From: a virus
Taxonomy: Duplodnaviria > Heunggongvirae > Uroviricota > Caudoviricetes
Virus record (IMG/VR): IMGVR_UViG_2554235419_000004
DNA length: 32,959 bases
Direction: 5' to 3' (one strand)
The notes under the pieces are model-generated. The model was not told the DNA's origin. It did no database searches and saw nothing but the letters and a program-made list of their open reading frames with translations. The position numbers and the translations under genes were made by a program. Of this stretch, positions 1,934 through 29,873 are shown piece after piece (position 1 is the stretch's first letter; each line of letters begins with the position of its first letter).

Positions 1934-3097
1934 TCACTCATCATCTTCGGTTTCGTACTCCACATCAGAAAGCCTGACCTCAAGCTCCAAGGACGTCGTG
2001 AAGCCGCTATTATTCAGAAAATGTGTCACCTTAGTGATTGTCCAGTCCTGCTCGTCTATGACGCGCTTAAAGCCTGACACTTTGACCGGCGTTTCCGTGT
2101 AAATATCTGCCCGACCAGTAGCCAGACTGATGGAGAACTCCGCTACACCCCGTTGCAGTTTATCCCACTTCGCCTGAGCGGCGCGCATGGCCTGTGCTTT
2201 CGTGGCATATACCGTGGTCAGGGCAAAAACGTTATCAGCCTCACCGGCCATGTATTCACCTTCACGCGCTTCCGGTACTTTTGGCGCTTTCTTCTGCGTG
2301 ACTGGTTTCGCTTTCGGGTGCTCCAGTGCGCGCAGGTGTTTCTCTTTCTTTTTGCGTTTCAGTTTTACCTTCTGCTTTTGCGGCTTCGGGTCTTTGGTGT
2401 GTAACCACTTTGCCGTTACGCCGGTATAGGCTCCACGGTCAGCAATCGCAAAATGATGACGGTCACCGTCGCTGCGGGTGAGGGTAATCTGCGGGATTTT
2501 TTTACCGCTGGCAGTCACCCCCTGCCCCGCTTTGAGAAACAGCAGTTTTCCCATTTTTACCGACACCTCACCGCCGTTGCGTTCTGCAAGACGGGTCAGA
2601 AATTTCGCATCAGACTCCTGCGACTGGTCGATGTGCGGGATTTTAATTCCGGCCAGTGACGGAGCGACACTGGCTTCCAGCCTGTTACGGGAGGCTATCG
2701 CCTCAACAATCGCACCGAGCGTGGTGTCATGCCATGAGCCTTCACGGCGGGAATTGAGCGTCCCGCGAAAATCTGCACTCCGGGCGCGGATGGTGACCAC
2801 ATCCGGTGCGCCCCGGTGTTCAACCTCATCAACGGTAAATTTCCCTTTGCATACCAGGGCAAAACCTTTCCAGCCGATATACACCGTCAGGACAGCGCCA
2901 CGAATCGGTAGTCCGACCTGCCCGTCGGCATCGTTCAGTTCAATATCAAGCTGGTCAGCCTCAAAGCCCCGGTTATCCGTCAGGGTCATGCTCATCAGAC
3001 GGTCGCTGATATTGCCGGTAATATCCCTGCTGTCGAGCATCAGCATGTAATCCGGCGTCAGCGTACTGCCTGCATCAAATGTCAGCGCATCCAGCAT
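1934..3097 (-). CDS. D: Tail protein gpD, 387 aa
   Basis: 387-aa ORF in the P2 position between ogr and U; length identical to P2 gpD as recalled. Confidence 0.8.
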   Translation of the reverse strand: MLDALTFDAGSTLTPDYMLMLDSRDITGNISDRLMSMTLTDNRGFEADQLDIELNDADGQVGLPIRGAVLTVYIGWKGFALVCKGKFTVDEVEHRGAPDVVTIRARSADFRGTLNSRREGSWHDTTLGAIVEAIASRNRLEASVAPSLAGIKIPHIDQSQESDAKFLTRLAERNGGEVSVKMGKLLFLKAGQGVTASGKKIPQITLTRSDGDRHHFAIADRGAYTGVTAKWLHTKDPKPQKQKVKLKRKKKEKHLRALEHPKAKPVTQKKAPKVPEAREGEYMAGEADNVFALTTVYATKAQAMRAAQAKWDKLQRGVAEFSISLATGRADIYTETPVKVSGFKRVIDEQDWTITKVTHFLNNSGFTTSLELEVRLSDVEYETEDDE

Positions 3098-3576
3098 TAT
3101 CCCGCCCCCGTCATACCCGTGAATTTAGTCGCCATACTGCCAGCCTTACCGATGAGCGATTCCGCCTGTTTACCGATATCGCCATAAAGCGCGGCCAGTG
3201 ATTCATCAACGCGGGTGAGCGACAGCGTAAAATCAATTTTTCGGGGTGTGCCATCTGCAAAGAAAATACTCCCTGTTTCACTCACCTTGCTGATGACATA
3301 CATGCCGTAAATCATTCCGGTGCCATCCAGCAACGGCCACGCCCGGCCTTCCTCTGCCATCAGTCTGAGCGTGGTCATCGTCAGCTTTCCGCCGGTCAGT
3401 TCGGGATAAAGCACACCGGCAAGCGTAATGTTTTCCTCACCCACACCGAGAAACTGAAAGGCATCCCGTTTGCCGATACGGGAATTTGACGGCCAGCGAT
3501 AATCTGATTCACGCTGCATGGTCTGGTGTGGCAGCGTCTGGCGCATAAAAACAAACATACCTAACGCGAGCATCAT
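3097..3576 (-). CDS. U: Tail protein gpU, 159 aa
   Basis: 159-aa ORF between T and D; length and synteny as in P2. Confidence 0.75.
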   Translation of the reverse strand: MMLALGMFVFMRQTLPHQTMQRESDYRWPSNSRIGKRDAFQFLGVGEENITLAGVLYPELTGGKLTMTTLRLMAEEGRAWPLLDGTGMIYGMYVISKVSETGSIFFADGTPRKIDFTLSLTRVDESLAALYGDIGKQAESLIGKAGSMATKFTGMTGAG

Positions 3577-6038: not shown

Positions 6039-6458
6039 TCGTGTTTCCGCTTCGCCGGAGCGCCTTTTCGCGCCATGTGATGAGTTCGGTCAGGCTCATG
6101 GGATACAGTTCTGATGGCGGCCAGTGAAATATCACTGCCACATCCGCCATCAGGTCATCGACCGAGAGATTTTTCGGGAACGTCACTGCACCGAGTTCGG
6201 CGACAAAAAACCGACCACCTTACCGGCCAGCGCCACAAGGTCAGGCAGTTCCAGTGCGGCGACCTCCTGCTCGGTCAGCATCGGTGCCGTCATGCGCGGC
6301 AGCACCTTAATCAGTGCATCGACTTCGGAGTTTGCGACCGCAGCCAGACTGACACCGCGCAGCGTCCCGGCATTGGGTTTCATCAGCGTGACCTGTTCGA
6401 TAACCTGCTCACCACGCTTGACCGGATTGTCCAGGGTAATCACATTTTCTTTGTTCAT
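6031..6458 (-). CDS. gpE+E' tail assembly chaperone made by programmed -1 frameshift, 142 aa predicted
   Basis: Manual translation: after the slip at T TTT TTG (plus 6204-6210) the -1 frame reads VAELGAVTFPKNLSVDDLMADVAVIFHWPPSELYPMSLTELITWREKALRRSGNTNE and stops at TAA overlapping the T start (ATGAGTAA); 85 + 57 = 142 aa, the P2 E+E' length as recalled. Confidence 0.75.
6183..6458 (-). CDS. E: Tail assembly chaperone gpE, 91 aa (zero-frame product)
   Basis: 91-aa ORF ending ...KVVGFLSPNSVQ; contains the GGT TTT TTG slippery site near its 3' end. Confidence 0.8.
   Translation of the reverse strand: MNKENVITLDNPVKRGEQVIEQVTLMKPNAGTLRGVSLAAVANSEVDALIKVLPRMTAPMLTEQEVAALELPDLVALAGKVVGFLSPNSVQ
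6204..6210 (-). promoter_or_regulatory. Slippery heptamer TTTTTTG for the E/E' -1 ribosomal frameshift
   Basis: Plus-strand caaaaaa = minus-strand TTTTTTG within the codons GGT TTT TTG of gpE. Confidence 0.75.
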
Positions 6459-6514
6459 GGTTTTCTCACTTCTGAATCGGGGTTAACCGGTCAGCCAGGC
6501 TGACCGGATGAAAA

Positions 6515-7033
6515 TCACAGGCCGATATTGCGGCGGTGTTGCTCCAGCCGGTCGACGCCGTTCACCTTCTCAATCATGTTGATGGTGTCGATTTCGACCA
6601 GCTCCTTACCGTCCATCGTCAGCCGGAAATAGGTGCAGACCACGGAGATTTTCGACTCGGTGTCTTCTCCCTGTTTGCCCTCGCCGGTGTCGATTTCTTT
6701 CTGACGTCCACGCATGACCACTTCGACGGCCACCGTTTCGCCGGTATCGTCACGCTGGTAAGAGCCTGCAAAACGAATCGGCACAGCATCCACACCGGTT
6801 GCGGCGTAAAGCTCCCAGATAACCGAATCCGGGAAGCCACCGAGCGACCACTCCATTGACAGCGCATCGTCATCAAGGCCGAGGTCTACCGGTGCGCTGC
6901 CGTTCATCCCCGCACCGCGATAGTTTTCGAGCTTACGGGTCAGTTTTGGCAGCGTGACGGACTTTGCAACGCCCTGATAGCTGTAGCCGTTCAGAAAGAC
7001 GTTCATTAACTTGAGTTTGCGCGGCATTGCCAT
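6515..7033 (-). CDS. FII: Tail tube protein gpFII, 172 aa
   Basis: 172-aa ORF directly downstream of FI; length and synteny as in P2. Confidence 0.8.
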   Translation of the reverse strand: MAMPRKLKLMNVFLNGYSYQGVAKSVTLPKLTRKLENYRGAGMNGSAPVDLGLDDDALSMEWSLGGFPDSVIWELYAATGVDAVPIRFAGSYQRDDTGETVAVEVVMRGRQKEIDTGEGKQGEDTESKISVVCTYFRLTMDGKELVEIDTINMIEKVNGVDRLEQHRRNIGL

Positions 7034-20556: not shown

Positions 20557-22329
20557 ATGACCATCACCACAGACACCACTCTTTTACACGACCCGCGTCG
20601 TCAGGCGGCGCTGCTGTACTGGCAGGGATTTTCCGTGCCGCAGATTGCCGCCATGTTGCAGATGAAACGCCCGACGGTGCAGAGCTGGAAACAGCGCGAC
20701 GGCTGGGACAGCGTTGCCCCCATCAGCCGTGTCGAAATGAGTCTGGAAGCGCGGCTGACCCAGCTCATCATCAAACCGCAGAAAACCGGCGGTGACTTCA
20801 AGGAAATTGACCTGCTCGGACGCCAGATTGAACGACTGGCACGGGTCAACCGTTACAGTCAGACCGGCAACGAGGCAGACCTTAATCCGAACGTCGCTAA
20901 CCGCAACAAAGGCGGGCGTCGCAAACCGAAAAAGAATTTTTTCAGTGACGAGGCCATCGAAAAGCTGGAGCAGATTTTCTTTGAGCAGTCTTTCGAATAT
21001 CAGTTGCACTGGTATCGCGCCGGGCTTGAGCACCGCATCCGCGATATCCTGAAATCCCGCCAGATTGGCGCGACGTTTTATTTTTCCCGCGAGGCGCTGC
21101 TGCGCGCCCTGAAAACCGGTCATAACCAGATTTTTCTGTCGGCCAGTAAAACGCAGGCGTATGTGTTCCGCGAATACATCATCGCCTTTGCCCGGCTGGT
21201 TGACGTTGACCTGACCGGTGACCCAATTGTCCTGGGCAATAACGGCGCAAAACTGATTTTTCTCGGCACCAACTCCAACACCGCGCAGAGCCATAACGGC
21301 GACCTGTACGTCGACGAGATTTTCTGGATCCCGAATTTTCAGGTGCTCCGTAAGGTGGCATCAGGTATGGCCTCACAGAGTCACCTGCGCTCGACCTATT
21401 TCTCCACCCCATCCACGCTGGCGCACGACGCCTACCCGTTCTGGTCCGGTGAACTGTTTAACCGGGGACGCGCCAGCGCCGCCGAACGCGTGGAAATCGA
21501 CGTCAGTCATAACGCCCTTGCCGGAGGTCTTCTCTGTGCGGACGGCCAGTGGCGGCAGATTGTCACCATTGAGGACGCCCTGAAAGGTGGCTGCACTCTG
21601 TTCGACATTGAGCAGCTCAAACGCGAAAACAGCGCCGACGATTTTAAAAACCTGTTCATGTGTGAATTTGTTGACGACAAGGCATCGGTGTTCCCGTTCG
21701 AGGAGCTGCAACGCTGCATGGTCGACACGCTGGAAGAATGGGAAGACTATGCGCCGTTTGCCGCAAATCCGTTCGGCTCACGTCCGGTATGGATTGGTTA
21801 CGACCCGTCACACCGTGGCGACAGCGCCGGATGCGTGGTACTGGCACCGCCGGTGGTGGCCGGTGGCAAATTCAGAATACTTGAGCGTCACCAGTGGAAA
21901 GGCATGGACTTTGCCACCCAGGCGGAATCCATCCGCAAACTCACCGAAAAATACAACGTCGAATACATCGGAATTGATGCCACCGGCCTCGGTGTCGGCG
22001 TGTTCCAGCTCGTGCGCTCGTTCTATCCCGCCGCGCGCGATATCCGCTACACGCCGGAAATGAAAACCGCAATGGTGCTCAAGGCAAAAGACGTTATCCG
22101 CCGTGGCTGTCTGGAATATGACGTCAGCGCCACCGACATCACCAGCTCGTTTATGGCTATCCGCAAGACCATGACCAGCAGCGGACGCAGTGCCACCTAT
22201 GAGGCCAGCCGCAGCGAGGAAGCCAGCCACGCCGACCTCGCCTGGGCGACCATGCACGCCCTGTTAAATGAGCCACTCACCGCCGGTATCAGCACCCCGC
22301 TGACATCCACCATTCTGGAGTTTTACTGA
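20557..22329 (+). CDS. P: Terminase large (ATPase) subunit gpP, 590 aa
   Basis: MTITTDTTLLHDPRRQAALLYWQGFSV...; GAGG Shine-Dalgarno 8 nt upstream; length as P2 gpP; followed by Q with overlapping stop/start. Confidence 0.85.
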   Translation: MTITTDTTLLHDPRRQAALLYWQGFSVPQIAAMLQMKRPTVQSWKQRDGWDSVAPISRVEMSLEARLTQLIIKPQKTGGDFKEIDLLGRQIERLARVNRYSQTGNEADLNPNVANRNKGGRRKPKKNFFSDEAIEKLEQIFFEQSFEYQLHWYRAGLEHRIRDILKSRQIGATFYFSREALLRALKTGHNQIFLSASKTQAYVFREYIIAFARLVDVDLTGDPIVLGNNGAKLIFLGTNSNTAQSHNGDLYVDEIFWIPNFQVLRKVASGMASQSHLRSTYFSTPSTLAHDAYPFWSGELFNRGRASAAERVEIDVSHNALAGGLLCADGQWRQIVTIEDALKGGCTLFDIEQLKRENSADDFKNLFMCEFVDDKASVFPFEELQRCMVDTLEEWEDYAPFAANPFGSRPVWIGYDPSHRGDSAGCVVLAPPVVAGGKFRILERHQWKGMDFATQAESIRKLTEKYNVEYIGIDATGLGVGVFQLVRSFYPAARDIRYTPEMKTAMVLKAKDVIRRGCLEYDVSATDITSSFMAIRKTMTSSGRSATYEASRSEEASHADLAWATMHALLNEPLTAGISTPLTSTILEFY

Positions 22330-23357
22330 TGAGCAAGAAAAAAGGGAAAACACCGCAACCTGCGGCAAAAAAAATGACCGCCAGCGCCCCGAAAATGGAG
22401 GCATTCACCTTTGGTGAGCCGGTGCCGGTACTCGACCGGCGTGACATTCTGGATTACGTCGAGTGCATCAGTAACGGCAGATGGTATGAGCCACCGGTCA
22501 GCTTTACCGGTCTGGCGAAAAGCCTGCGTGCTGCCGTGCATCACAGCTCACCGATTTACGTCAAACGTAATATTCTGGCTTCAACGTTTATCCCGCACCC
22601 GTGGCTTTCCCAGCAGGATTTCAGCCGTTTTGTGCTGGATTTTCTGGTGTTCGGTAATGCGTTTCTGGAAAAGCGTTACAGCACCACCGGTAAGGTTATC
22701 AGGCTGGAAACCTCGCCGGCAAAATATACCCGCCGTGGCGTGGAGGAGGATGTTTACTGGTGGGTGCCGTCCTTCAACGAGCCGACAGCCTTCGCGCCCG
22801 GCTCCGTGTTTCACCTGCTGGAGCCGGATATCAATCAGGAGCTGTACGGCCTGCCGGAATATCTCAGCGCCCTTAACTCTGCCTGGCTGAATGAGTCAGC
22901 CACGCTGTTCCGCCGCAAGTATTACGAAAACGGCGCTCATGCCGGATACATCATGTACGTCACTGATGCCGTGCAGGATCGCAACGATATCGAAATGCTT
23001 CGCGAAAACATGGTCAAGTCGAAAGGCCGCAACAACTTTAAAAACCTGTTTCTCTATGCCCCACAGGGGAAAGCCGACGGCATTAAAATTATCCCCCTCA
23101 GTGAAGTGGCGACGAAGGACGATTTTTTTAATATCAAAAAAGCCAGCGCCGCTGACCTGCTGGACGCGCACCGCATCCCCTTTCAGTTGATGGGCGGCAA
23201 GCCGGAGAACGTCGGGTCACTGGGTGATATTGAGAAAGTGGCAAAGGTCTTTGTCCGCAATGAGCTTATCCCGCTACAGGACAGGATCCGCGAGATAAAC
23301 GGCTGGCTCAGCGCCGAAGTTATTCAATTCAAAAATTACTCTTTAGACGATAATTAA
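22329..23357 (+). CDS. Q: Portal protein gpQ, 342 aa
   Basis: 342-aa ORF downstream of P and translationally coupled to it; synteny with P2 Q. Confidence 0.85.
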   Translation: MSKKKGKTPQPAAKKMTASAPKMEAFTFGEPVPVLDRRDILDYVECISNGRWYEPPVSFTGLAKSLRAAVHHSSPIYVKRNILASTFIPHPWLSQQDFSRFVLDFLVFGNAFLEKRYSTTGKVIRLETSPAKYTRRGVEEDVYWWVPSFNEPTAFAPGSVFHLLEPDINQELYGLPEYLSALNSAWLNESATLFRRKYYENGAHAGYIMYVTDAVQDRNDIEMLRENMVKSKGRNNFKNLFLYAPQGKADGIKIIPLSEVATKDDFFNIKKASAADLLDAHRIPFQLMGGKPENVGSLGDIEKVAKVFVRNELIPLQDRIREINGWLSAEVIQFKNYSLDDN

Positions 23358-23376: not shown

Positions 23377-23424
23377 TTAGCCCTAGCATTTGCCGGGGCT
23401 AATAATTGCAGGATTTTATTTTTT
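23377..23424. terminator. Hairpin plus T-rich tract between convergent Q and the cargo operon (candidate bidirectional terminator)
   Basis: ttagccc...gggctaa inverted repeat (23377-23402) followed by attttatttttt on the plus strand. Confidence 0.35.
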
Positions 23425-23988
23425 CATATTGTATATAAAGTCACAAATATGCGCCAGTGATAATCTGTTATAGTTTTCCAATGTAAACACAGGATAATTA
23501 TAGCAAATTTCAGGAGGAGGCAATTGCGAGCGAACAGTTGTTTTTTTAGCTGATTGCTGCCTCCTCGATAATTTACTTATTACACCAATGTAATCCACTT
23601 TTCTTGACAAATGCCCATGTAAATTCAATACAGAATATAGCCACTTACAAAAATGAATGCCAGTAACTACCTGTTTAGCCGCACCATTTGAGTTATAAGA
23701 TTTGAGATCTATTACGATAAAATAATCTACGTCTTTGTGCGACGTAACAAAAATTCCATCACAAACAGAGCATACTCCTGGTAAAGCAGAAGATTTTAAA
23801 AATTTCCAGACTGGTTTAGAAATACTATTAGAATCTAGCGAAAATCCATAGATACCATTTCCGTTTACCAGTAATTTTTTATTTGTAGCACCTGGGTTCT
23901 CTTCGCATACAACCCAGCATTCCTGCTCTCGCATTAATTGAAATGTAGGATCGATGCAACTTTGTATTACATTGATAATATTACTCAT
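23416..23988 (-). CDS. Unknown 190-aa protein, second gene of the AT-rich cargo operon; candidate effector of a defence system
   Basis: ATG overlaps the stop of the upstream ATPase gene (ATGAGTAA, 8-nt gene overlap); GAGGA Shine-Dalgarno; AT-rich codon usage unlike the phage backbone; no motif I can assign with confidence. Confidence 0.7.
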   Translation of the reverse strand: MSNIINVIQSCIDPTFQLMREQECWVVCEENPGATNKKLLVNGNGIYGFSLDSNSISKPVWKFLKSSALPGVCSVCDGIFVTSHKDVDYFIVIDLKSYNSNGAAKQVVTGIHFCKWLYSVLNLHGHLSRKVDYIGVISKLSRRQQSAKKTTVRSQLPPPEICYNYPVFTLENYNRLSLAHICDFIYNMKK

Positions 23989-25414
23989 CTACATCCTCAC
24001 TATCAGAGGCATTCTCCACCAAGGAGTAATATATTTCATCATTATCGTCATTAATGGCATTAATTACTTCATCAAAAGTTACAGCATTAATCCCTTCATT
24101 TGACTTCTGCATTTCATTGACTGAGCCATTATCAAATAAATACGCAGCGACTAGGTTAGAGTCTAAAATTGAGTCGATGCTAATCCCTTGCTTCTGCATG
24201 ATAGCGTTTCGTTTTTCAATCATATTTTCAGAAACGCCATGCAACATAATCAAGCTATTGATTTCTTTCACAAAATAATCACTGTGAGTACTAACAATAA
24301 CCCGAATACCAGAGTTAACTAGCTTTGCTAAAAATCTTGCAATTACTCGCTGATTTGACGGGTGTAAATTTAACTCGGGTTCGTCAATCATTAAAATATC
24401 ACCAGTTTTTGCTTGGTGCTCTAAATAAAACCACAGGCCAAACAAACTTTTAACAGTGGATGACGATAAATGAAGTTCAATTTTACTTGCAGGTGTCTTA
24501 CCTTTCTTATACGTTGAAAAATAAATCTGCCCTTCAGGATCAACTGAATATTTTCCTGAAATTATTTTTTTTACTTCTTCTGCTAATTTATGAAATTGGC
24601 CATTTTTATTTTTCCTATTAACCTTAATTTCATTAAGCCAGTCTATGTAATTTGCTATAGGAGCAGAATACTTAGACTTCATTACATCCATTAATAGTGA
24701 GTTCAGATCGAACTGTTCTTTTGAGGCGTGGTGCAATAACGCAGTTCTTCTGGAACTTAATTCATTGAAAAAAAGGTGCAAGCCATTTCTTTCTGCGGGA
24801 ATTAAAAATGCTGGGCTTTCATCATACTCTATCTTTAATAACTGACTTAGAGTTAAGTTTATAAACCCATCAATTCTGGGAAAAGCAGAATCTAGCAGCG
24901 TCATTTGTATGATATTGCTATTTTTATCTTTGGATAATAGCATTACTTCTTTTTTGCCGGTTCCTATGACGAGGCTAACATCCAATTTTTTTTCATAAAC
25001 ACTTGATACTAATGATTCTTCATCTATAACCCAGTCAAATGTTGAATTAGAAAAAATTTCCTTATCATTAGTGTTGAATACATCTTTAAGCATTAAAGAT
25101 GAATCTTTATTAAATTCTCTTTTGATTAACGTAAAATTATCTTTTATCCACTCAATTACATCTAATTCAAACTTACCATTTTCACGAAGAGTTTTGGCAA
25201 AATTTGCAACTTGAGGCAATTTTAAAGATGGTGATGGCATATTTAGGAAGCCATATAACCCATACATAACCCATGTTTTACCAGTATTATTTTTTCCGCA
25301 TAAAAGCGTTAAAGGTTTTGCATTAATTTCTCCTGTAGAGATACACCCAATGTTTTTAAATGAAAATCTCCATGATGCTAATTTTTTTACGTTAATTTCA
25401 CTTTGCTTTTTCAT
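23981..25414 (-). CDS. ABC-type / AAA15-AAA21-like ATPase (OLD/SMC-like fold), 477 aa; first gene of the cargo operon
   Basis: Walker A LLCGKNNTGKT (res 38-47); Walker B/D-loop ILMIDEPELNLHP; H-loop VSTHSD; acidic C-terminal tail; AAGGA Shine-Dalgarno; AT-rich. Confidence 0.8.
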   Translation of the reverse strand: MKKQSEINVKKLASWRFSFKNIGCISTGEINAKPLTLLCGKNNTGKTWVMYGLYGFLNMPSPSLKLPQVANFAKTLRENGKFELDVIEWIKDNFTLIKREFNKDSSLMLKDVFNTNDKEIFSNSTFDWVIDEESLVSSVYEKKLDVSLVIGTGKKEVMLLSKDKNSNIIQMTLLDSAFPRIDGFINLTLSQLLKIEYDESPAFLIPAERNGLHLFFNELSSRRTALLHHASKEQFDLNSLLMDVMKSKYSAPIANYIDWLNEIKVNRKNKNGQFHKLAEEVKKIISGKYSVDPEGQIYFSTYKKGKTPASKIELHLSSSTVKSLFGLWFYLEHQAKTGDILMIDEPELNLHPSNQRVIARFLAKLVNSGIRVIVSTHSDYFVKEINSLIMLHGVSENMIEKRNAIMQKQGISIDSILDSNLVAAYLFDNGSVNEMQKSNEGINAVTFDEVINAINDDNDEIYYSLVENASDSEDVDE

Positions 25415-25665: not shown

Positions 25666-25684
25666 GTGCTTTCCCCGCCTCGCC
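25666..25684. other. cos site (19-nt cohesive-end sequence)
   Basis: gtgctttccccgcctcgcc is the reverse complement of GGCGAGGCGGGGAAAGCAC, the P2 cohesive end as I recall it; sits in a GC-rich island inside AT-rich surroundings. Confidence 0.75.
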
Positions 25685-25968
25685 CGCCCGCTTCACGGGG
25701 CGGTTTTAATGCAGTTGCATAGATACTATGGATCCGCACCAGTCCTGACCGCACGCAGCCTGAACGGACATCCCCAGCGCATGCAAAAACATTCACTTGT
25801 TGCATGCATAGCTTTTTAAGTACGCCATACCGCAACTGTACATTTTTAAGCAATTGGCAACTTTAAAAAATTTACATTGCTTTCAAGACCTTATCATCCG
25901 TAGTCTCTGTTTTTTACTTTGAGCTACATCAATAAAATCTCAAACATGTTTAATGCAAAGCCCTTGTT

Positions 25969-26022
25969 ACACAACATAGAATGTATGTCTAGAAACAACG
26001 ACATACTATATGTTGTGTTTTT
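25969..26022 (+). terminator. Long imperfect hairpin plus T-run (candidate intrinsic terminator, attenuator or sRNA 3' end)
   Basis: acacaacatagaatgtatgtc / gacatactatatgttgtgt arms (7 bp + internal loop + 10 bp) followed by TTTTT. Confidence 0.45.
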
Positions 26023-26074
26023 CCGGCTCTCTGTTCGGTGATATGCCAAATCACTTTGCGTTTAAACAGAGCAT

Positions 26075-26089
26075 TATTTCAGGGCAAGA
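26075..26089. repeat. 15-bp direct repeat caagacttcgctcaa, copy 1
   Basis: Exact match to 26349-26363; the two copies flank the small ORF and terminator. Confidence 0.6.
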
Positions 26090-26162
26090 CTTCGCTCAAA
26101 AGTCATTCCACCTAAGAAGCGCATATACCGGTGGAAGTTGCCCTCTACTTACAGGAGGCAAT

Positions 26163-26276
26163 ATGAAGAAATGCTATTACTGCATTCTCGTTCTGGCCCT
26201 CTTTGGCTATCCAAACGGTAGTCCAAGTGGTTTGTCAGTAAACGTCAGTAATATCAATGTCAGCATTATGCTTTAA
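26163..26276 (+). CDS. Small hydrophobic peptide, 37 aa (possible membrane peptide or moron product)
   Basis: AGGAGG Shine-Dalgarno 4 nt before the ATG; MKKCYYCILVLALFGYPNGSPSGLSVNVSNINVSIML; immediately followed by a strong terminator. Confidence 0.4.
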   Translation: MKKCYYCILVLALFGYPNGSPSGLSVNVSNINVSIML

Positions 26277-26285
26277 TATGCTTCA

Positions 26286-26320
26286 AACAAAAAAACCACC
26301 TGCCAGGGTGGTTTTTTTGC
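26286..26320. terminator. Bidirectional Rho-independent terminator (A7-hairpin-T7)
   Basis: aaaaaaaccacctgccagggtggttttttt: GC stem flanked by an A-run and a T-run; can terminate the small-ORF transcript (plus) and the early operon ending with A (minus). Confidence 0.7.
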
Positions 26321-26348
26321 GCCCATCATCAATACGATGAAAGACTGA

Positions 26349-26363
26349 CAAGACTTCGCTCAA
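26349..26363. repeat. 15-bp direct repeat caagacttcgctcaa, copy 2
   Basis: Exact match to 26075-26089. Confidence 0.6.
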
Positions 26364-26578
26364 GACGAATTATGCGTCGACATAAGGTTACCCGCAATGA
26401 TTTTATTAGACTAAATGGATGGCCTTTTATGACCCGGATCAAACGGCTGTCCTTACCGACATGCTAGTCACTCAATAGCATTTAGCCTTCTAATTCAGCA
26501 TGCTATTGACCTTCTGCTGCCCCATAACTGCTCCGCATAAGCCATTCAATGCCATATCAAATCACGTTGTGTTTTTAC

Positions 26579-28897
26579 TCAAATGGGTAACGAGAACCCC
26601 GGCCACTCATCAGCAACCGGATACGTGAATTTTTTCCCGTCATAATTTACGGTCGCGCCACGCGCCAGCGCCTCAAGCTCCCATCGTTGCGGCCTGATAC
26701 CGTTCTGAGCGAGGTCAACGCGGATACGGGTAATTTGCAATCGTTCAGACCTGGTCAGTCTGGCAGATGGTGCAATTTCATGCGGTTTTAACGGGATTCC
26801 GTTTCTTTGCTGACGATTTGGTGTTCTCAGTCCGTGTTTTAATGCGCCCCTGAGCACCATCACGACCTCCGGGTCACTCCATTCGATAACACCGTCATCT
26901 ACCAGATTAAGCACTGCTGCGGCGTGCTCAGAAGGTGTGGGAGCCGGTAACGAAGTATCACCACCGGTGAGCTTTCCACAGTTATTGACAGGACTCCGAG
27001 GCGCGGCGATGCCGCTTTTTAAAGTCAAAGGCTCGACGACCGGAACTTTCGGCACAATGCGCCAGTTCGTCGTTCTGGTGATATGAATATGACGCGCGCC
27101 GAGATGCGGCGCGTAAATGCCGACCACTCTCTCGACCTCTTCCTCGTACTCGTTAACGTCATCCGACGGGCTACGGGCGACCCTGACAGTCTGACAATCG
27201 CGCGGGACATTTGCCCCACCCTGCGCGCTGATATACAACGCAAAATCACCACTGTCTGCGGCGGCGCGTGCAGCCTCGACGCGCTCGTCAAACTCATCAG
27301 CAATGCTGACGCCGCGAGGCAATTTGCGTAGTTCACGGTAAGCCCCCATTGTCGGCAGGCCAACCGTTTTAAATTGCGGGATGCGCCACGTTGACGCCCA
27401 TGCGGTAACAGCCGCTGCAGTGTCTTTCAGCGGCCTGCCGGTGTCGTTATCGAGCTGACCATCCAGTGCATAGCCGTCGATGTTTTTTGAAATGTATTTC
27501 GCGATATATCCCGCAGCACCGCCCCGGTTAAGGTGTTTTGCCTGAAAACGGTTTCGCGCGGCTCCTCTTTCATCGCCATCCTCTTTGAGCGCATAGCGAC
27601 GCATGATTTCGATAATCTGGTTACGCTGGCGTGGATTACAAAAAAGCATCATATGCCAGTGCGGCGTTCCGTCGTGGTGTGGCTCGACGACACGCAAACC
27701 GTAGACCTGTAAATCATTATCCTTGAATGCCGTGCGCATCAGGCTCCAGATACGGCAGAGATAACGCTGCGCATCCTTTGGATTAAATGCCTCATCGTTC
27801 CAGCCGTGATTAAGCTGCACGGTTTTACTTTCGCCTTTTCCTACCTGACGTGTCGGATGATACTTTGACGGCGCGGTCAGCGTGATAAACATCCCCACAT
27901 CACCCTCTGCAGCGGCGTAACGCTCAATACCGGCAATGGTGTTCATCAGCTCCATCCGGCGAATTTCAGGATTAGAAATACTGCCCATCACCTTACTGAT
28001 AAGGTCGATGCGCTCGCCGGTTTCCCTATTTTCAAGGTCACACGATTTAAGAAATTCCAGATTTGCCTGGCGGCGCGCACGCACATCACGAATGGCGTGT
28101 TTACTGGCATAAGGAGAACGGTCTTTATTGACCTCCCCGACAGCTATCAGTAACGCTTCATGCCAGCGCATACGCTGGCCTTTAAGCTGATGAGTCCACC
28201 ACTCATCGTTAAACAGACGGGCAATGGCAGAATATGCCTGCCTCGTGGTCATCTGTCCTTTACGGTATTTTTTCCAGTAAAGCGGGGAAATATTGAAAGC
28301 ACGTGCAGCGCCAGCAACATGACCATACAGATGCGCCTGCGCCTCATCCGTAAACAGCGATTCTTTTTCGCCATGCGCATCCACCCAGGCATCGCAGAGT
28401 TCCTCATACATCATGAAAAGCTGCGATGAGATACGGGCGGCAAACTTTTTCAGCTCCTTGTCATTCATCCCCGGCAGACGCGCATACTGGTCACGCTCTG
28501 CCAGAAACAGCAACGACGCGTCGGTGTTCATTTCATGGCGCTGATTCACACGCTCAATGCGCGGCCATAAACGACGCTGAAAAGTGGATGTGAGGAAATA
28601 AAACCCGTGTACCGGGCTTTTATTGCGCCGGATGTAGTCATAGCGTGAAGTAAACAGCGAGCGCAAAAAGTAAGGCAGGCGGTTAATCGTGGATAAAACA
28701 CCTTGCACCTGACGCATCTCGTCACGTGTAAGGGGTCTTTCGCGCCCGACAGCCTCGCGTGGCGCGTTCCATGCATAAGCACCGGTAAACGCCTTACCGG
28801 TGCCTGCGGCAAATGCTGACGGAGGGACAAAACGCCCGGAGGCTTTAACGGCCATATGAGCCAAAAGCCTCTGAACAACGCTTGCTGAGTTGCTCAA
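26579..28897 (-). CDS. A: Replication initiation protein gpA (rolling-circle nickase), 772 aa
   Basis: 772-aa ORF at the end of the early operon; size and position as P2 gpA (761 aa as recalled). Confidence 0.85.
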   Translation of the reverse strand: MSNSASVVQRLLAHMAVKASGRFVPPSAFAAGTGKAFTGAYAWNAPREAVGRERPLTRDEMRQVQGVLSTINRLPYFLRSLFTSRYDYIRRNKSPVHGFYFLTSTFQRRLWPRIERVNQRHEMNTDASLLFLAERDQYARLPGMNDKELKKFAARISSQLFMMYEELCDAWVDAHGEKESLFTDEAQAHLYGHVAGAARAFNISPLYWKKYRKGQMTTRQAYSAIARLFNDEWWTHQLKGQRMRWHEALLIAVGEVNKDRSPYASKHAIRDVRARRQANLEFLKSCDLENRETGERIDLISKVMGSISNPEIRRMELMNTIAGIERYAAAEGDVGMFITLTAPSKYHPTRQVGKGESKTVQLNHGWNDEAFNPKDAQRYLCRIWSLMRTAFKDNDLQVYGLRVVEPHHDGTPHWHMMLFCNPRQRNQIIEIMRRYALKEDGDERGAARNRFQAKHLNRGGAAGYIAKYISKNIDGYALDGQLDNDTGRPLKDTAAAVTAWASTWRIPQFKTVGLPTMGAYRELRKLPRGVSIADEFDERVEAARAAADSGDFALYISAQGGANVPRDCQTVRVARSPSDDVNEYEEEVERVVGIYAPHLGARHIHITRTTNWRIVPKVPVVEPLTLKSGIAAPRSPVNNCGKLTGGDTSLPAPTPSEHAAAVLNLVDDGVIEWSDPEVVMVLRGALKHGLRTPNRQQRNGIPLKPHEIAPSARLTRSERLQITRIRVDLAQNGIRPQRWELEALARGATVNYDGKKFTYPVADEWPGFSLPI

Positions 28898-29120
28898 CCT
28901 GCGCGTTTAAATCAGCAAAAGACTTTGCGCTTCCGGTCAGAATATCGTGATGCATCAGGCCGGAAACGAGCTGGCTTAATTTCGGGTAATAACCAACCAC
29001 CGCCAGCCATTCCTGACCGGCGTTTTTACCGCTTTCCGCTCTCTTTTTCTCGTGGAGAATAAACTGAAAGCTGTCACTGGTAACGACATAACGTTCGCCA
29101 ATTTCAATACGAATACTCAT
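28845..29120 (-). CDS. P2 orf83-like hypothetical protein, 91 aa
   Basis: Synteny immediately upstream of A; overlapping starts and stops with its neighbours. Confidence 0.55.
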   Translation of the reverse strand: MSIRIEIGERYVVTSDSFQFILHEKKRAESGKNAGQEWLAVVGYYPKLSQLVSGLMHHDILTGSAKSFADLNAQVEQLSKRCSEAFGSYGR

Positions 29121-29341
29121 GCCGTTCTCCGGTAATGTTTGTTTTTTGCTTCAAAGACTGACTGACAGGAAACACAACGCGTGGCTGACGGATAAGCCGC
29201 ACGACGGGCAGCAGGTATTGGTGCGTCACACTCTTCGCAAACCAGCGCAGAAACACCGCAATGTTTTACCCTTGCCGCGTTAATCTGACGCTCCAGTAAT
29301 TCAGCCTGTTGTTCCTGAATAAAATCTACGTTGTCCGGCAT
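29117..29341 (-). CDS. TraR/DksA-family C4 zinc-finger protein (P2 orf82-like), 74 aa
   Basis: C-x2-C ... C-x2-C pattern (VCEECDAPIP...RCVSCQ); position in the early operon. Confidence 0.65.
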   Translation of the reverse strand: MPDNVDFIQEQQAELLERQINAARVKHCGVSALVCEECDAPIPAARRAAYPSATRCVSCQSVFEAKNKHYRRTA

Positions 29342-29343
29342 TA

Positions 29344-29643
29344 TCAGCTCCTTTTATCGTTAAGTTTCCTGGATACATCAGCGCAATAACTGGCAAGTTC
29401 TGTCGTTAATTTTGTCAGTTCATCCACTGAGGAAATTTGCTTGTGGAATACAGCGCGTTTAACAAGTAAATTGACCACATCAGACAGGAGGTTTAATTCA
29501 TTCTGATAAATCGCGATTACAGATTCAGTTATGTCGCGTTTTTCTTTATCAAGACAAAGTTGAATAAGAGACAAATCGCCATTTTCCATAACGGCGATTT
29601 TTAAGGCGTTATTCAGTAATACAACTGAATAAGAACAGGACAT
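29344..29643 (-). CDS. P2 orf81-like hypothetical protein, about 99 aa
   Basis: ORF in the early operon; probable ATG at 29643 directly after TTG. Confidence 0.55.
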   Translation of the reverse strand: MSCSYSVVLLNNALKIAVMENGDLSLIQLCLDKEKRDITESVIAIYQNELNLLSDVVNLLVKRAVFHKQISSVDELTKLTTELASYCADVSRKLNDKRS

Positions 29644-29756
29644 CAAAGCACCTCCCCGCGAGACAATCCGATATTGTGAAATTTTTCCGACTCCTGACTG
29701 AGCAGCTCGACTATCTCCACGCGGGATAACTCCGCCTTTGTGATGTGGCGAATCAT
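29643..29756 (-). CDS. Small ORF (37 aa), possible P2 orf80 equivalent
   Basis: Manual translation [37 protein letters not shown]; stop overlaps the next start (TGATG); no strong Shine-Dalgarno. Confidence 0.3.
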
Positions 29757-29873
29757 GGCGTCAAGATGAGAAGAAAAGCGCGTTGCAGCGTCGGCCTGTG
29801 CTTCGGTTCTGGCCTGTTGCAGCAGTAATGCGTATTTACCGCATTAAGTACGTTAAAAACTCTGGTTAATTAT

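Follow-up and report, generated by a model that had tools for sequence, protein, structure and literature searches.

The window analysed here is a stretch of 32,959 nucleotides (IMG/VR record IMGVR_UViG_2554235419_000004) that represents a P2-like prophage, read in reverse orientation. The subject of this report is the interval between phage gene A and the cohesive end (cos), for which an earlier note, made from the DNA letters alone, had claimed a hairpin, a small-peptide open reading frame (ORF), a bidirectional terminator and flanking direct repeats in an otherwise empty old/tin position. The interval carries a conserved block that encodes a 37-aa hydrophobic peptide on the plus strand and a predicted antisense small RNA on the minus strand; with moderate confidence, we read it as an autonomous module of the type I toxin-antitoxin (TA) kind, made up of two RNAs and horizontally mobile. 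The features of the module are, by position in the window:

25863-25988, plus strand: region copied from the host nrdDG promoter, ahead of the start of the peptide mRNA
25919-25932, plus strand: FNR-2-like box TTGAGCTACATCAA, one mismatch to TTGAT-N4-ATCAA; identical to K-12 nrdD, at the same position
25950-25963, plus strand: FNR-1-like box TTAATGCAAAGCCC, degenerate in the clade of the window; aligns with TTGATGCAAAGCAC of K-12 nrdD, and most other variants read TTGATGCAAA...
25969-25984: NrdR-box-like site 1' (ACACAACATAGAATGT), left arm of the hairpin, including the -10 TAGAAT (25977-25982); 10.9 bits
26003-26018: NrdR-box-like site 2 (ATACTATATGTTGTGT), right arm of the hairpin; 19.9 bits
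25989-26162, plus strand: predicted 5' untranslated region (5'UTR) of the peptide mRNA, approximately 174 nt, with a start at about 25988-25991 inferred from the -10
26085-26099, plus strand: direct repeat 1, CAAGACTTCGCTCAA, predicted target of the small RNA in the 5'UTR, 64 nt upstream of the AUG
26153-26158, plus strand: Shine-Dalgarno (SD) sequence AGGAGG, of which GGAGG is invariant across all variants
26163-26276, plus strand: 37-aa peptide gene (114 nt), MKKCYYCILVLALFGYPNGSPSGLSVNVSNINVSIML
26288-26319: bidirectional intrinsic terminator, common to both convergent RNAs, with arms CAAAAAAACCACC/GGTGGTTTTTTTG (26288-26300 / 26307-26319) and A7/T7 flanks
26362 to 26287, minus strand: predicted antisense small RNA, approximately 76 nt, comprising 5' seed (26348-26362), stem-loop 1 (26321-26345) and terminator
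26349-26363, minus strand: direct repeat 2, CAAGACTTCGCTCAA, template of the small-RNA 5' seed
26369-26397, minus strand: predicted small-RNA promoter, with -35 TTGCGG (26397-26392), 17-nt spacer and -10 CATAAT (26374-26369)

The ORF with the near-consensus AGGAGG that the earlier note had pointed out lies at 26163-26276, and its conservation and coding signature indicate that it is a real gene. Its length is 114 nt in 68 of 68 loci, which comprise 16 nucleotide variants and 12 peptide variants; pairwise dN/dS (nonsynonymous to synonymous substitution) ratios are 0.08-0.29, and the variable columns are distributed over codon positions 1, 2 and 3 as 19, 13 and 32 (p = 0.004). Residues M1, C7, L9-V10-L11, L13, G15-Y16-P17, G19, S22 and S25 are invariant. 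The locus thus holds a gene for a hydrophobic peptide of less than 60 aa under purifying selection, as is usual for type I TA systems. An in-frame extension of the ORF to 88 aa was considered and dropped, because a TAG codon interrupts it in the sister clades. The peptide has been deposited as hypothetical only (e.g. with identical sequence in E. coli W, as ECW_m2278; another entry is from Salmonella phage MET_P1_103_31), and a string search of the literature with the peptide and repeat sequences found no relevant paper; the module appears to be undescribed, and the peptide/small-RNA family appears to be unnamed.

Homologues of the peptide were searched for by DNA-pattern scans. Of 5426 complete E. 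coli genomes, 151 (2.8%) have the interval, always in P2-like prophages, and PGAP annotates nothing there; the copies fall into three clades, whose identity to the window is at least 99%, about 88% and about 87%, respectively. Among 185,579 species representatives one copy was found, in Citrobacter freundii M-21 (75% identical), on DNA that is common with an Enterobacter IncFIB plasmid. When the Citrobacter copy was used as query, 414 plasmids matched (388 of them over at least 80% of its length), mostly conjugative IncFIB/FII Klebsiella plasmids, with the module spot unannotated in all; 28 metagenome contigs provided further variants. The conserved block extends over approximately 500 bp, from about 25905 to about 26410, and the flanks outside it are only approximately 20-40% identical to those of the Citrobacter copy. 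The general idea that the interval is a miniature moron or type-I-like module, and not random spacer, is borne out by this conserved peptide/small-RNA unit. In K. pneumoniae MGH 78578, for which differential RNA-seq (dRNA-seq) is available (PMC10907235), the module is absent from the first 150 kb of pKPN3.

Two groups of variants should be introduced separately. A divergent subfamily is represented by L047 (positions 1480-2000 of the Salmonella IncFII plasmid NC_019343.1), to which 13 Salmonella plasmids match; it has a 39-aa peptide (MDRRDCMCLFILTLISHLITGQESWMVYLNHISLTVQFY), a different 5'UTR and repeats that are 274 bp apart. The metagenome contig L064 carries two paralogous modules at a distance of 2.9 kb (3367-3442 and 6230-6900); in the second, the NrdR boxes are strong (15.2 and 17.7 bits) at a spacing of 42 bp, and repeat 1 has a change that G.U pairing tolerates.

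The 15-bp direct repeats are exact, as had been stated, and their start-to-start spacing is 264 bp instead of the 274 bp given by the earlier note; by our estimate, the chance expectation for an exact 15-bp repeat pair in 1.3 kb is about 8e-4. Both copies are kept in every homologue, and repeat 1 is conserved at 15 of 15 positions relative to the Citrobacter copy, with flanks that are 67-73% identical. With transcription in opposite directions, the seed encoded by repeat 2 can pair with repeat 1 in the leader of the peptide mRNA. This complementarity is exact over 14-18 nt in all variants, with duplex energies of -25.6 to -34 kcal/mol; these values refer to seed-only duplexes, which were used in place of full-length duplex folding as the latter over-extended the duplexes. 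Every difference between repeat 1 and repeat 2 across the variants still allows an RNA pair (G:C, G:U or A:U): a G/A difference gives a G.U pair in the window and in L064, L067 has GAC in both repeats, and CAAGGC versus CAAGAC gives a G.U pair in L064b. In L047 both repeats read GGTAAGGCTTTGCTCA, with the same three substitutions in each copy relative to GGCAAGACTTCGCTCA, and the L047 small RNA would bind the sites of the main family at -13 to -21 kcal/mol versus -29.8 kcal/mol for its own site.

The earlier note had described the repeats as bracketing a cassette of ORF and terminator. They do flank both, and such repeats could be scars of its insertion, i.e. a target-site duplication or recombination sites. 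An empty site with a single repeat was not found in 2.9 million viral contigs; the conserved module continues beyond the repeats, by about 180 bp on the upstream side (repeat 1) and about 45 bp on the downstream side (repeat 2), and both repeats change together in L047. The missing empty site, the concerted changes in L047 and the adherence to pairing rules argue against insertion scars, an origin that we consider scarcely credible, and for a co-evolving RNA-RNA specificity, in which the repeats are the two halves of an antisense pair.

The predicted promoter of the small RNA is highly regular. All 35 unique modules have -35 TTGCG[G/A/T], a 17-nt spacer (18 nt in L047), -10 CATAAT, and exactly 7 nt from there to GAGC; relative to the Citrobacter copy, the hexamers are conserved 6/6 and 11/11 and the spacer is only 47% identical. 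Conserved hexamers with a diverged spacer are the pattern typical of a working promoter, as which we would read this sequence. The RNA is predicted to fold at -29.5 kcal/mol (z = -4.4), with the 5' seed single-stranded. Stem-loop 1 is maintained although its sequence differs widely, and in 10 of 11 variants G.U pairs make the minus-strand version more stable than the plus-strand one. Since MAFFT/RNAalifold misaligned this element, per-sequence folds and a covariance-model alignment were used instead; the latter contains compensatory changes in seven of the nine stem-loop 1 pairs, a count that rests on an alignment fitted to the model. In this alignment 97.6% of the cells are paired, versus 52-65% with slid partners, and the covariation score was reached by none of 500 shuffles.

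The A7-stem-T7 bidirectional terminator of the earlier note is present as described: its 13-nt arms are 100% complementary, and 31-32 of its 32 positions are conserved in all variants, the divergent L047 included. Both predicted RNAs would end at this element.

The minus-strand features could alternatively be no more than the place where the early-operon transcript of the phage (gene A mRNA) ends, with its terminator, and repeat 2 could act at the DNA level, e.g. as a protein-binding site, with no small RNA at all; gene A (26579-28897, minus strand) is indeed transcribed toward the terminator. The plasmid copies, which have no gene A upstream, nevertheless keep the -35, the 17-nt spacer, the -10, the 7 nt and the seed exactly, and the promoter is therefore independent of read-through from the phage early operon. 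Stem-loop 1, furthermore, covaries and is favoured on the minus strand, and the differences between the repeats obey the pairing rules of RNA, G.U included. We regard the early-operon explanation as improbable. The regulatory RNA of the locus is, on these grounds, better placed on the minus strand, from repeat 2 to the shared terminator, and the antisense RNA that a type I TA system requires for pairing with the peptide mRNA is present as a prediction (promoter, structure and covarying 14-18-bp seed duplex). That the two-RNA antisense module is real is held with high confidence.

The promoter of the peptide mRNA resembles a host promoter. Positions 25863-25964 align with the DNA upstream of K-12 nrdD at approximately 80% identity, and positions 25895-25959 match the Salmonella treC-nrdD intergenic region in a distant BLAST search (E = 4e-8); in the ST131 clade, a 55-nt stretch over both FNR boxes differs from K-12 at about one position. 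The order FNR-2, 17 nt, FNR-1, 13 nt, and -10 (TAGAAT or TAAAAT) is constant in 35 of 35 unique modules and in K-12 nrdDG. Two FNR boxes approximately 31 bp apart upstream of a -10, together with the nrdDG homology, are what is expected of an FNR-dependent promoter. It is probable that the promoter is nrdDG-derived and of the FNR type, and FNR dependence may reasonably be inferred from this arrangement for the whole module family.

The module promoters also form a mosaic pattern, in that they resemble the nrdD promoter of their own host group: E. coli modules have the E. coli-type TTGAGC...AAAGC, and Citrobacter, Klebsiella and Salmonella modules have the Salmonella-type TTGTTC...AAATCAC (comparison of window positions 25863-25964 with L038, L037, L040, L042 and L047). 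This pattern suggests that the module promoters recombine, or exchange sequence, with the resident nrdD promoter.

For NrdR, the binding oligonucleotides of PMC12176259 contain six E. coli boxes, from which a position weight matrix was derived and scanned over 32,944 positions of the window. Site 2 ranked first, with a score above those of all training boxes, and site 1' ranked second; site 2 is invariant across the three E. coli clades. The operator rule for NrdR is two 16-bp boxes with a 15-16-bp linker, i.e. 31-32 bp from centre to centre, that overlap the promoter (PMC2892513, PMC12176259). The centres are 34 bp apart in the clade of the window (+19/+53 from FNR-1), 32 bp in the ST131 and P2_OU clades (+19/+51), and 31 bp in L047 and L067, in which the boxes are at the exact host offsets (+10/+41 from FNR-1); in the Citrobacter copy and L064b they are 41-42 bp apart. 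The L047 boxes have the canonical 15-bp linker; the second (CCCCTACAGGTAGGGG) has the same core as nrdAB box 2 and doubles as the first mRNA hairpin. Judged from these box patterns, NrdR control is likely ancestral and uncertain for the window, and that NrdR acts in the clade of the window is a tentative proposal, on which our view is slightly sceptical.

The two NrdR-like sites account for the long imperfect hairpin of the earlier note. The hairpin is present in the sequence, with arms at 25969-25978 and 26009-26018, the inner stem TGTATGTC/GACATAC and five T residues at 26018-26022, and the inverted repeat folds as RNA at -20.1 kcal/mol (z = -5.5 versus shuffles). NrdR boxes are palindromic and similar to each other, and a pair of boxes consequently looks like an inverted repeat. 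We take the hairpin for promoter and putative operator DNA and not for an RNA terminator. The -10 at 25977-25982 would set the start of the mRNA near 25989, inside this hairpin.

The earlier note had proposed a plus-strand transcript of about 100 nt, from a promoter at 25873-25899 to 26022, which could be taken for the regulatory partner of the peptide gene; the stability of the hairpin and the T5 that follows it in the clade of the window speak in its favour. The proposed hexamers (TTTACA...TATCAT) are there, with a spacer of 15 nt, and were not reported by a consensus scan. The long hairpin with its U-run is confined to the clade with at least 99% identity to the window. Both sister E. coli clades, which have a 2-bp deletion and TTGTT where the inner stem and T-run would be, lack it, as do all plasmid copies, and none of the Citrobacter, Klebsiella, L067 and L047 copies forms it. 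Of the two elements that the earlier note had suggested to look for in related prophages, the repeat is thus in every homologue, and the hairpin is missing in the sister clades and plasmids. The arms are matches to NrdR boxes, and the proposed RNA has no complementarity to the peptide mRNA. We consider a plus-strand RNA of this kind very improbable, and retain the minus-strand antisense RNA as the candidate regulator.

The predicted 5'UTR is highly structured. It contains a conserved 5' hairpin (CUCUGUU...AACAGAG, 26029-26071) with two compensatory pairs, and an anti-SD sequence, UUGCCCUCU (26138-26146), that pairs with the SD sequence AGGAGGCAA; the SD is mostly paired in the ten variants that were folded (predicted probability of being unpaired, 0.03-0.33), and the fold of the whole peptide mRNA has z = -4.8. 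A switch in which the small RNA on repeat 1 frees the anti-SD, which would then close the SD, was considered and dropped, as the change in SD accessibility was inconsistent in constrained partition-function folding of ten variants. By analogy to tisB/istR-1, repression by the small RNA may operate via blockade of a standby site or via RNase III cleavage. A 30-nt direct repeat (26034-26063 versus 26545-26574, 73% identity) was also observed, by which a piece of the 5'UTR hairpin recurs beside the stop codon of gene A; a second module may have left this relic, or the match may be fortuitous.

Among known systems, the wiring is closest to that of par-like type I TA loci, for which convergent promoters, direct repeats and a shared terminator are the defining layout (PMC7472228). 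As in par (Fst/RNA I-RNA II) of the Enterococcus faecalis plasmid pAD1, the module has convergent promoters and an mRNA for a small hydrophobic peptide, an antisense RNA across direct repeats, a shared bidirectional intrinsic terminator with complementary loops, an SD that is sequestered intramolecularly, and carriage on plasmids and phages. It differs in that par has DRa and DRb, with repeats over the start codon, whereas the module has one repeat pair with repeat 1 located 64 nt upstream of the AUG; the repeats hence do not cover the translation initiation region, although the pair would be transcribed both ways. The peptide, in addition, has neither the hydrophobic PXXXG motif nor the charged tail of Fst/Ldr-type toxins, and the hosts of the module are Enterobacteriaceae, unlike that of the E. 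faecalis par.

In the enterobacterial systems tisB/istR-1, dinQ/agrB, zorO/orzO and shoB/ohsC, the 5'UTR is long and structured, and the small RNA pairs with it through a short 5' seed, far ahead of the ribosome-binding site; in tisB/istR-1-type loci the pairing shows in the DNA as a direct repeat, and toxin transcription is placed on a stress regulon (LexA for tisB and dinQ). The module resembles tisB/istR-1, dinQ/agrB and zorO/orzO in its seed directed at the 5'UTR and in its stress-regulon promoter; the small RNAs of tisB/istR-1-type loci are encoded divergently upstream, whereas that of the module is convergent with a shared terminator, and the regulon of tisB and dinQ is SOS, whereas the module mimics nrdDG (FNR/NrdR). 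None of the Rfam models for tisB/istR, zorO/orzO, shoB/ohsC, sib, sok and rdlD scored above its gathering threshold. The hok/sok system (plasmid R1, and prophage and chromosomal copies) is likewise of the post-segregational killing (PSK) type on enterobacterial plasmids and prophages and has a sequestered SD, but Hok is approximately 50 aa with its own Pfam/NCBIfam families, and a mok frame and a cis-overlapping Sok accompany it, none of which is found in the module. Relative to the host nrdDG promoter, FNR-2, FNR-1 and -10 are in the same register; the host promoter drives ribonucleotide reductase, whereas the module promoter would drive a 37-aa peptide on mobile elements, and the NrdR boxes have moved in the E. 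coli P2 clades (+19/+51-53) and are degenerate in the common Klebsiella plasmids. Because of the par-like layout and the lack of any family or Rfam match, we describe the module as type I TA-like with par-like wiring and do not file it under a named family.

The conservation and coding signature, the homology of the promoter, the antisense pairing with its covariation and the structure of the RNAs can be read from the DNA itself. In the model that we propose, in which transcription of both RNAs, repression by the small RNA, toxicity of the peptide and binding of FNR and NrdR are predictions from the DNA, a plus-strand mRNA of approximately 330 nt (about 25989 to 26320) would encode the hydrophobic peptide. 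Through its copy of the nrdDG promoter, the mRNA would be activated by FNR under anaerobiosis and, at least ancestrally, repressed by NrdR according to the ATP/dATP status, and its SD would be held in an intramolecular helix. A convergent sigma70-type promoter would yield the minus-strand small RNA of approximately 76 nt, of which the first 14-18 nt (the reverse complement of repeat 2) would pair with repeat 1 in the mRNA 5'UTR, and both RNAs would terminate at the common bidirectional terminator. The small RNA would keep the peptide off by a block of translation or by triggering decay, and the peptide would act on the membrane when the mRNA outruns the small RNA; the outcome would be stabilisation of the prophage or plasmid, or growth arrest under anaerobic or nucleotide stress.

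Several observations weigh against this model. In the clade of the window the NrdR-like boxes are 34 bp apart (canonical, 31-32 bp) and FNR-1 is degenerate, and in the commonest Klebsiella variant the NrdR boxes are weak only. Repeat 1 is 64 nt from the AUG, hence repression cannot be plain occlusion of the ribosome-binding site, and blocking repeat 1 in silico in ten variants caused no consistent shift of SD accessibility. A scan of both strands with Rfam (E <= 10) gave only sub-threshold matches driven by the terminator, with no antitoxin or small-RNA model at threshold (best scores and thresholds: RNAI, 24.8/47; OrzO-P, 21.3/60), and a scan of the nrdD intergenic region gave nothing; the covariation count, with its model-fitted alignment, belongs here as well. 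Only about 13 residues of the peptide form its hydrophobic stretch, and the polar C-terminal half carries no charge, in contrast to classical type I toxins; a search of five peptide variants against Pfam and NCBIfam found nothing at E <= 10, and the PHROGs and PADLOC models, the latter including defence systems, had no match to the peptide.

These properties of the peptide are also those that favour a variant of the model in which the two-RNA module is the same and the peptide is no toxin. It would instead be a harmless small protein, in the membrane or exported, that acts as a moron or as an accessory factor in anaerobic growth, and the antisense RNA would tune its level. The short hydrophobic N-terminal segment, the polar uncharged tail and the missing toxin-family match fit such a protein, and co-regulation with nrdDG points to a physiological function under anaerobiosis. 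Typical traits of addiction modules are, on the other hand, also present, namely carriage on plasmids and prophages, tandem paralogues, a sequestered SD and a par-like layout, and a dedicated antisense RNA with co-evolving specificity is rare for purely beneficial small proteins. We consider the non-toxin variant rather unlikely as a whole, and the toxic nature of the peptide, taken by itself, to be evenly balanced between yes and no.

The flanks of the module are those of a P2-like prophage, with the following features:

22329-23357, plus strand: portal gene Q
23416-25414, minus strand: PD-T4-4 anti-phage pair, comprising PD-T4-4 A (AAA_15 ATPase, 477 aa, E = 2e-112) and PD-T4-4 B (190 aa, E = 1e-15)
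25666-25684: P2 cohesive end, 19 nt
26579-28897, minus strand: gene A, with its stop-codon end at 26579

Positions 25666-25713 are a 100% match to the right end of P2, and positions 26592-29843 match P2 gene A at 96.8%. P2 itself has orf91, tin and old between A and cosR; the longest ORF in the corresponding interval of the window is 88 aa, and since no larger ORF exists between gene A and cos, the description of this slot as an empty old/tin position is correct. The module thereby occupies the same genomic slot as P2 old/tin in the gpA-gpQ defence hotspot. The survey of this hotspot by Rousset et al. 2022 was protein-based and used annotated genes (PMC9122126). The recognisable defence system of the window, PD-T4-4, is flanked by portal gene Q and cos, such that cos separates it from the old/tin position of P2, and related prophages carry varied cargo in that slot (PD-T4-4, retron Ec48 or an ImmA/IrrE gene set). 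No paper that links type I TA systems with P2-like phages was found in the searchable literature. A GC-rich hairpin followed by TTTT (CCGCCCGCTTCACGGGGCGG TTTT, 25684-25703) adjoins the cohesive end; it is identical in the right end of P2 and is therefore part of the conserved cos region.

Two observations concern database records. In many RefSeq E. coli chromosomes (NZ_CM130731.1, NZ_AP027869.1, NZ_CP148323.1 and others) the module is located exactly at 2276-3156 or 2486-2836 of the record; the start of these chromosomes seems to have been set to P2 gene A ('replication endonuclease'), which the rotation software apparently took for a replication initiator. The record NZ_CP026085.1 ('Escherichia coli strain DH5alpha', 4.83 Mb) has a prophage interval that is 100% identical to the window, unexpected for a K-12 derivative, which suggests a mislabelled strain.

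The analysis assigns a concrete, testable function to what looked like an 'empty' position in a classic phage, by way of a module that had escaped standard annotation. The family, apparently unnamed, occurs in 2.8% of complete E. coli genomes, and hundreds of Klebsiella plasmids of clinical relevance carry it as well; among enterobacteria, it would exemplify the convergent par-type layout of type I TA systems. If the promoter works like its nrdDG template, a toxin-like peptide would be tied to anaerobiosis and deoxynucleotide status; we know of no earlier description of such an input for type I systems. At its most far-reaching, a reading that we put forward as speculation and think unlikely, a mobile type-I-TA-like family took over the full nrdDG regulatory region, with which it still partly exchanges sequence, such that toxin transcription reports oxygen (FNR) and ATP/dATP (NrdR); in the P2 defence hotspot and on large Klebsiella plasmids, the module would then serve as a switch for addiction or abortive infection that senses the nucleotide pool and is restrained by a co-evolving antisense RNA. 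An nrdDG-type input would bear on gut colonisation, plasmid maintenance and phage defence, and the locus is a warning that RNA-regulated mini-genes are overlooked by protein-based surveys of such hotspots.

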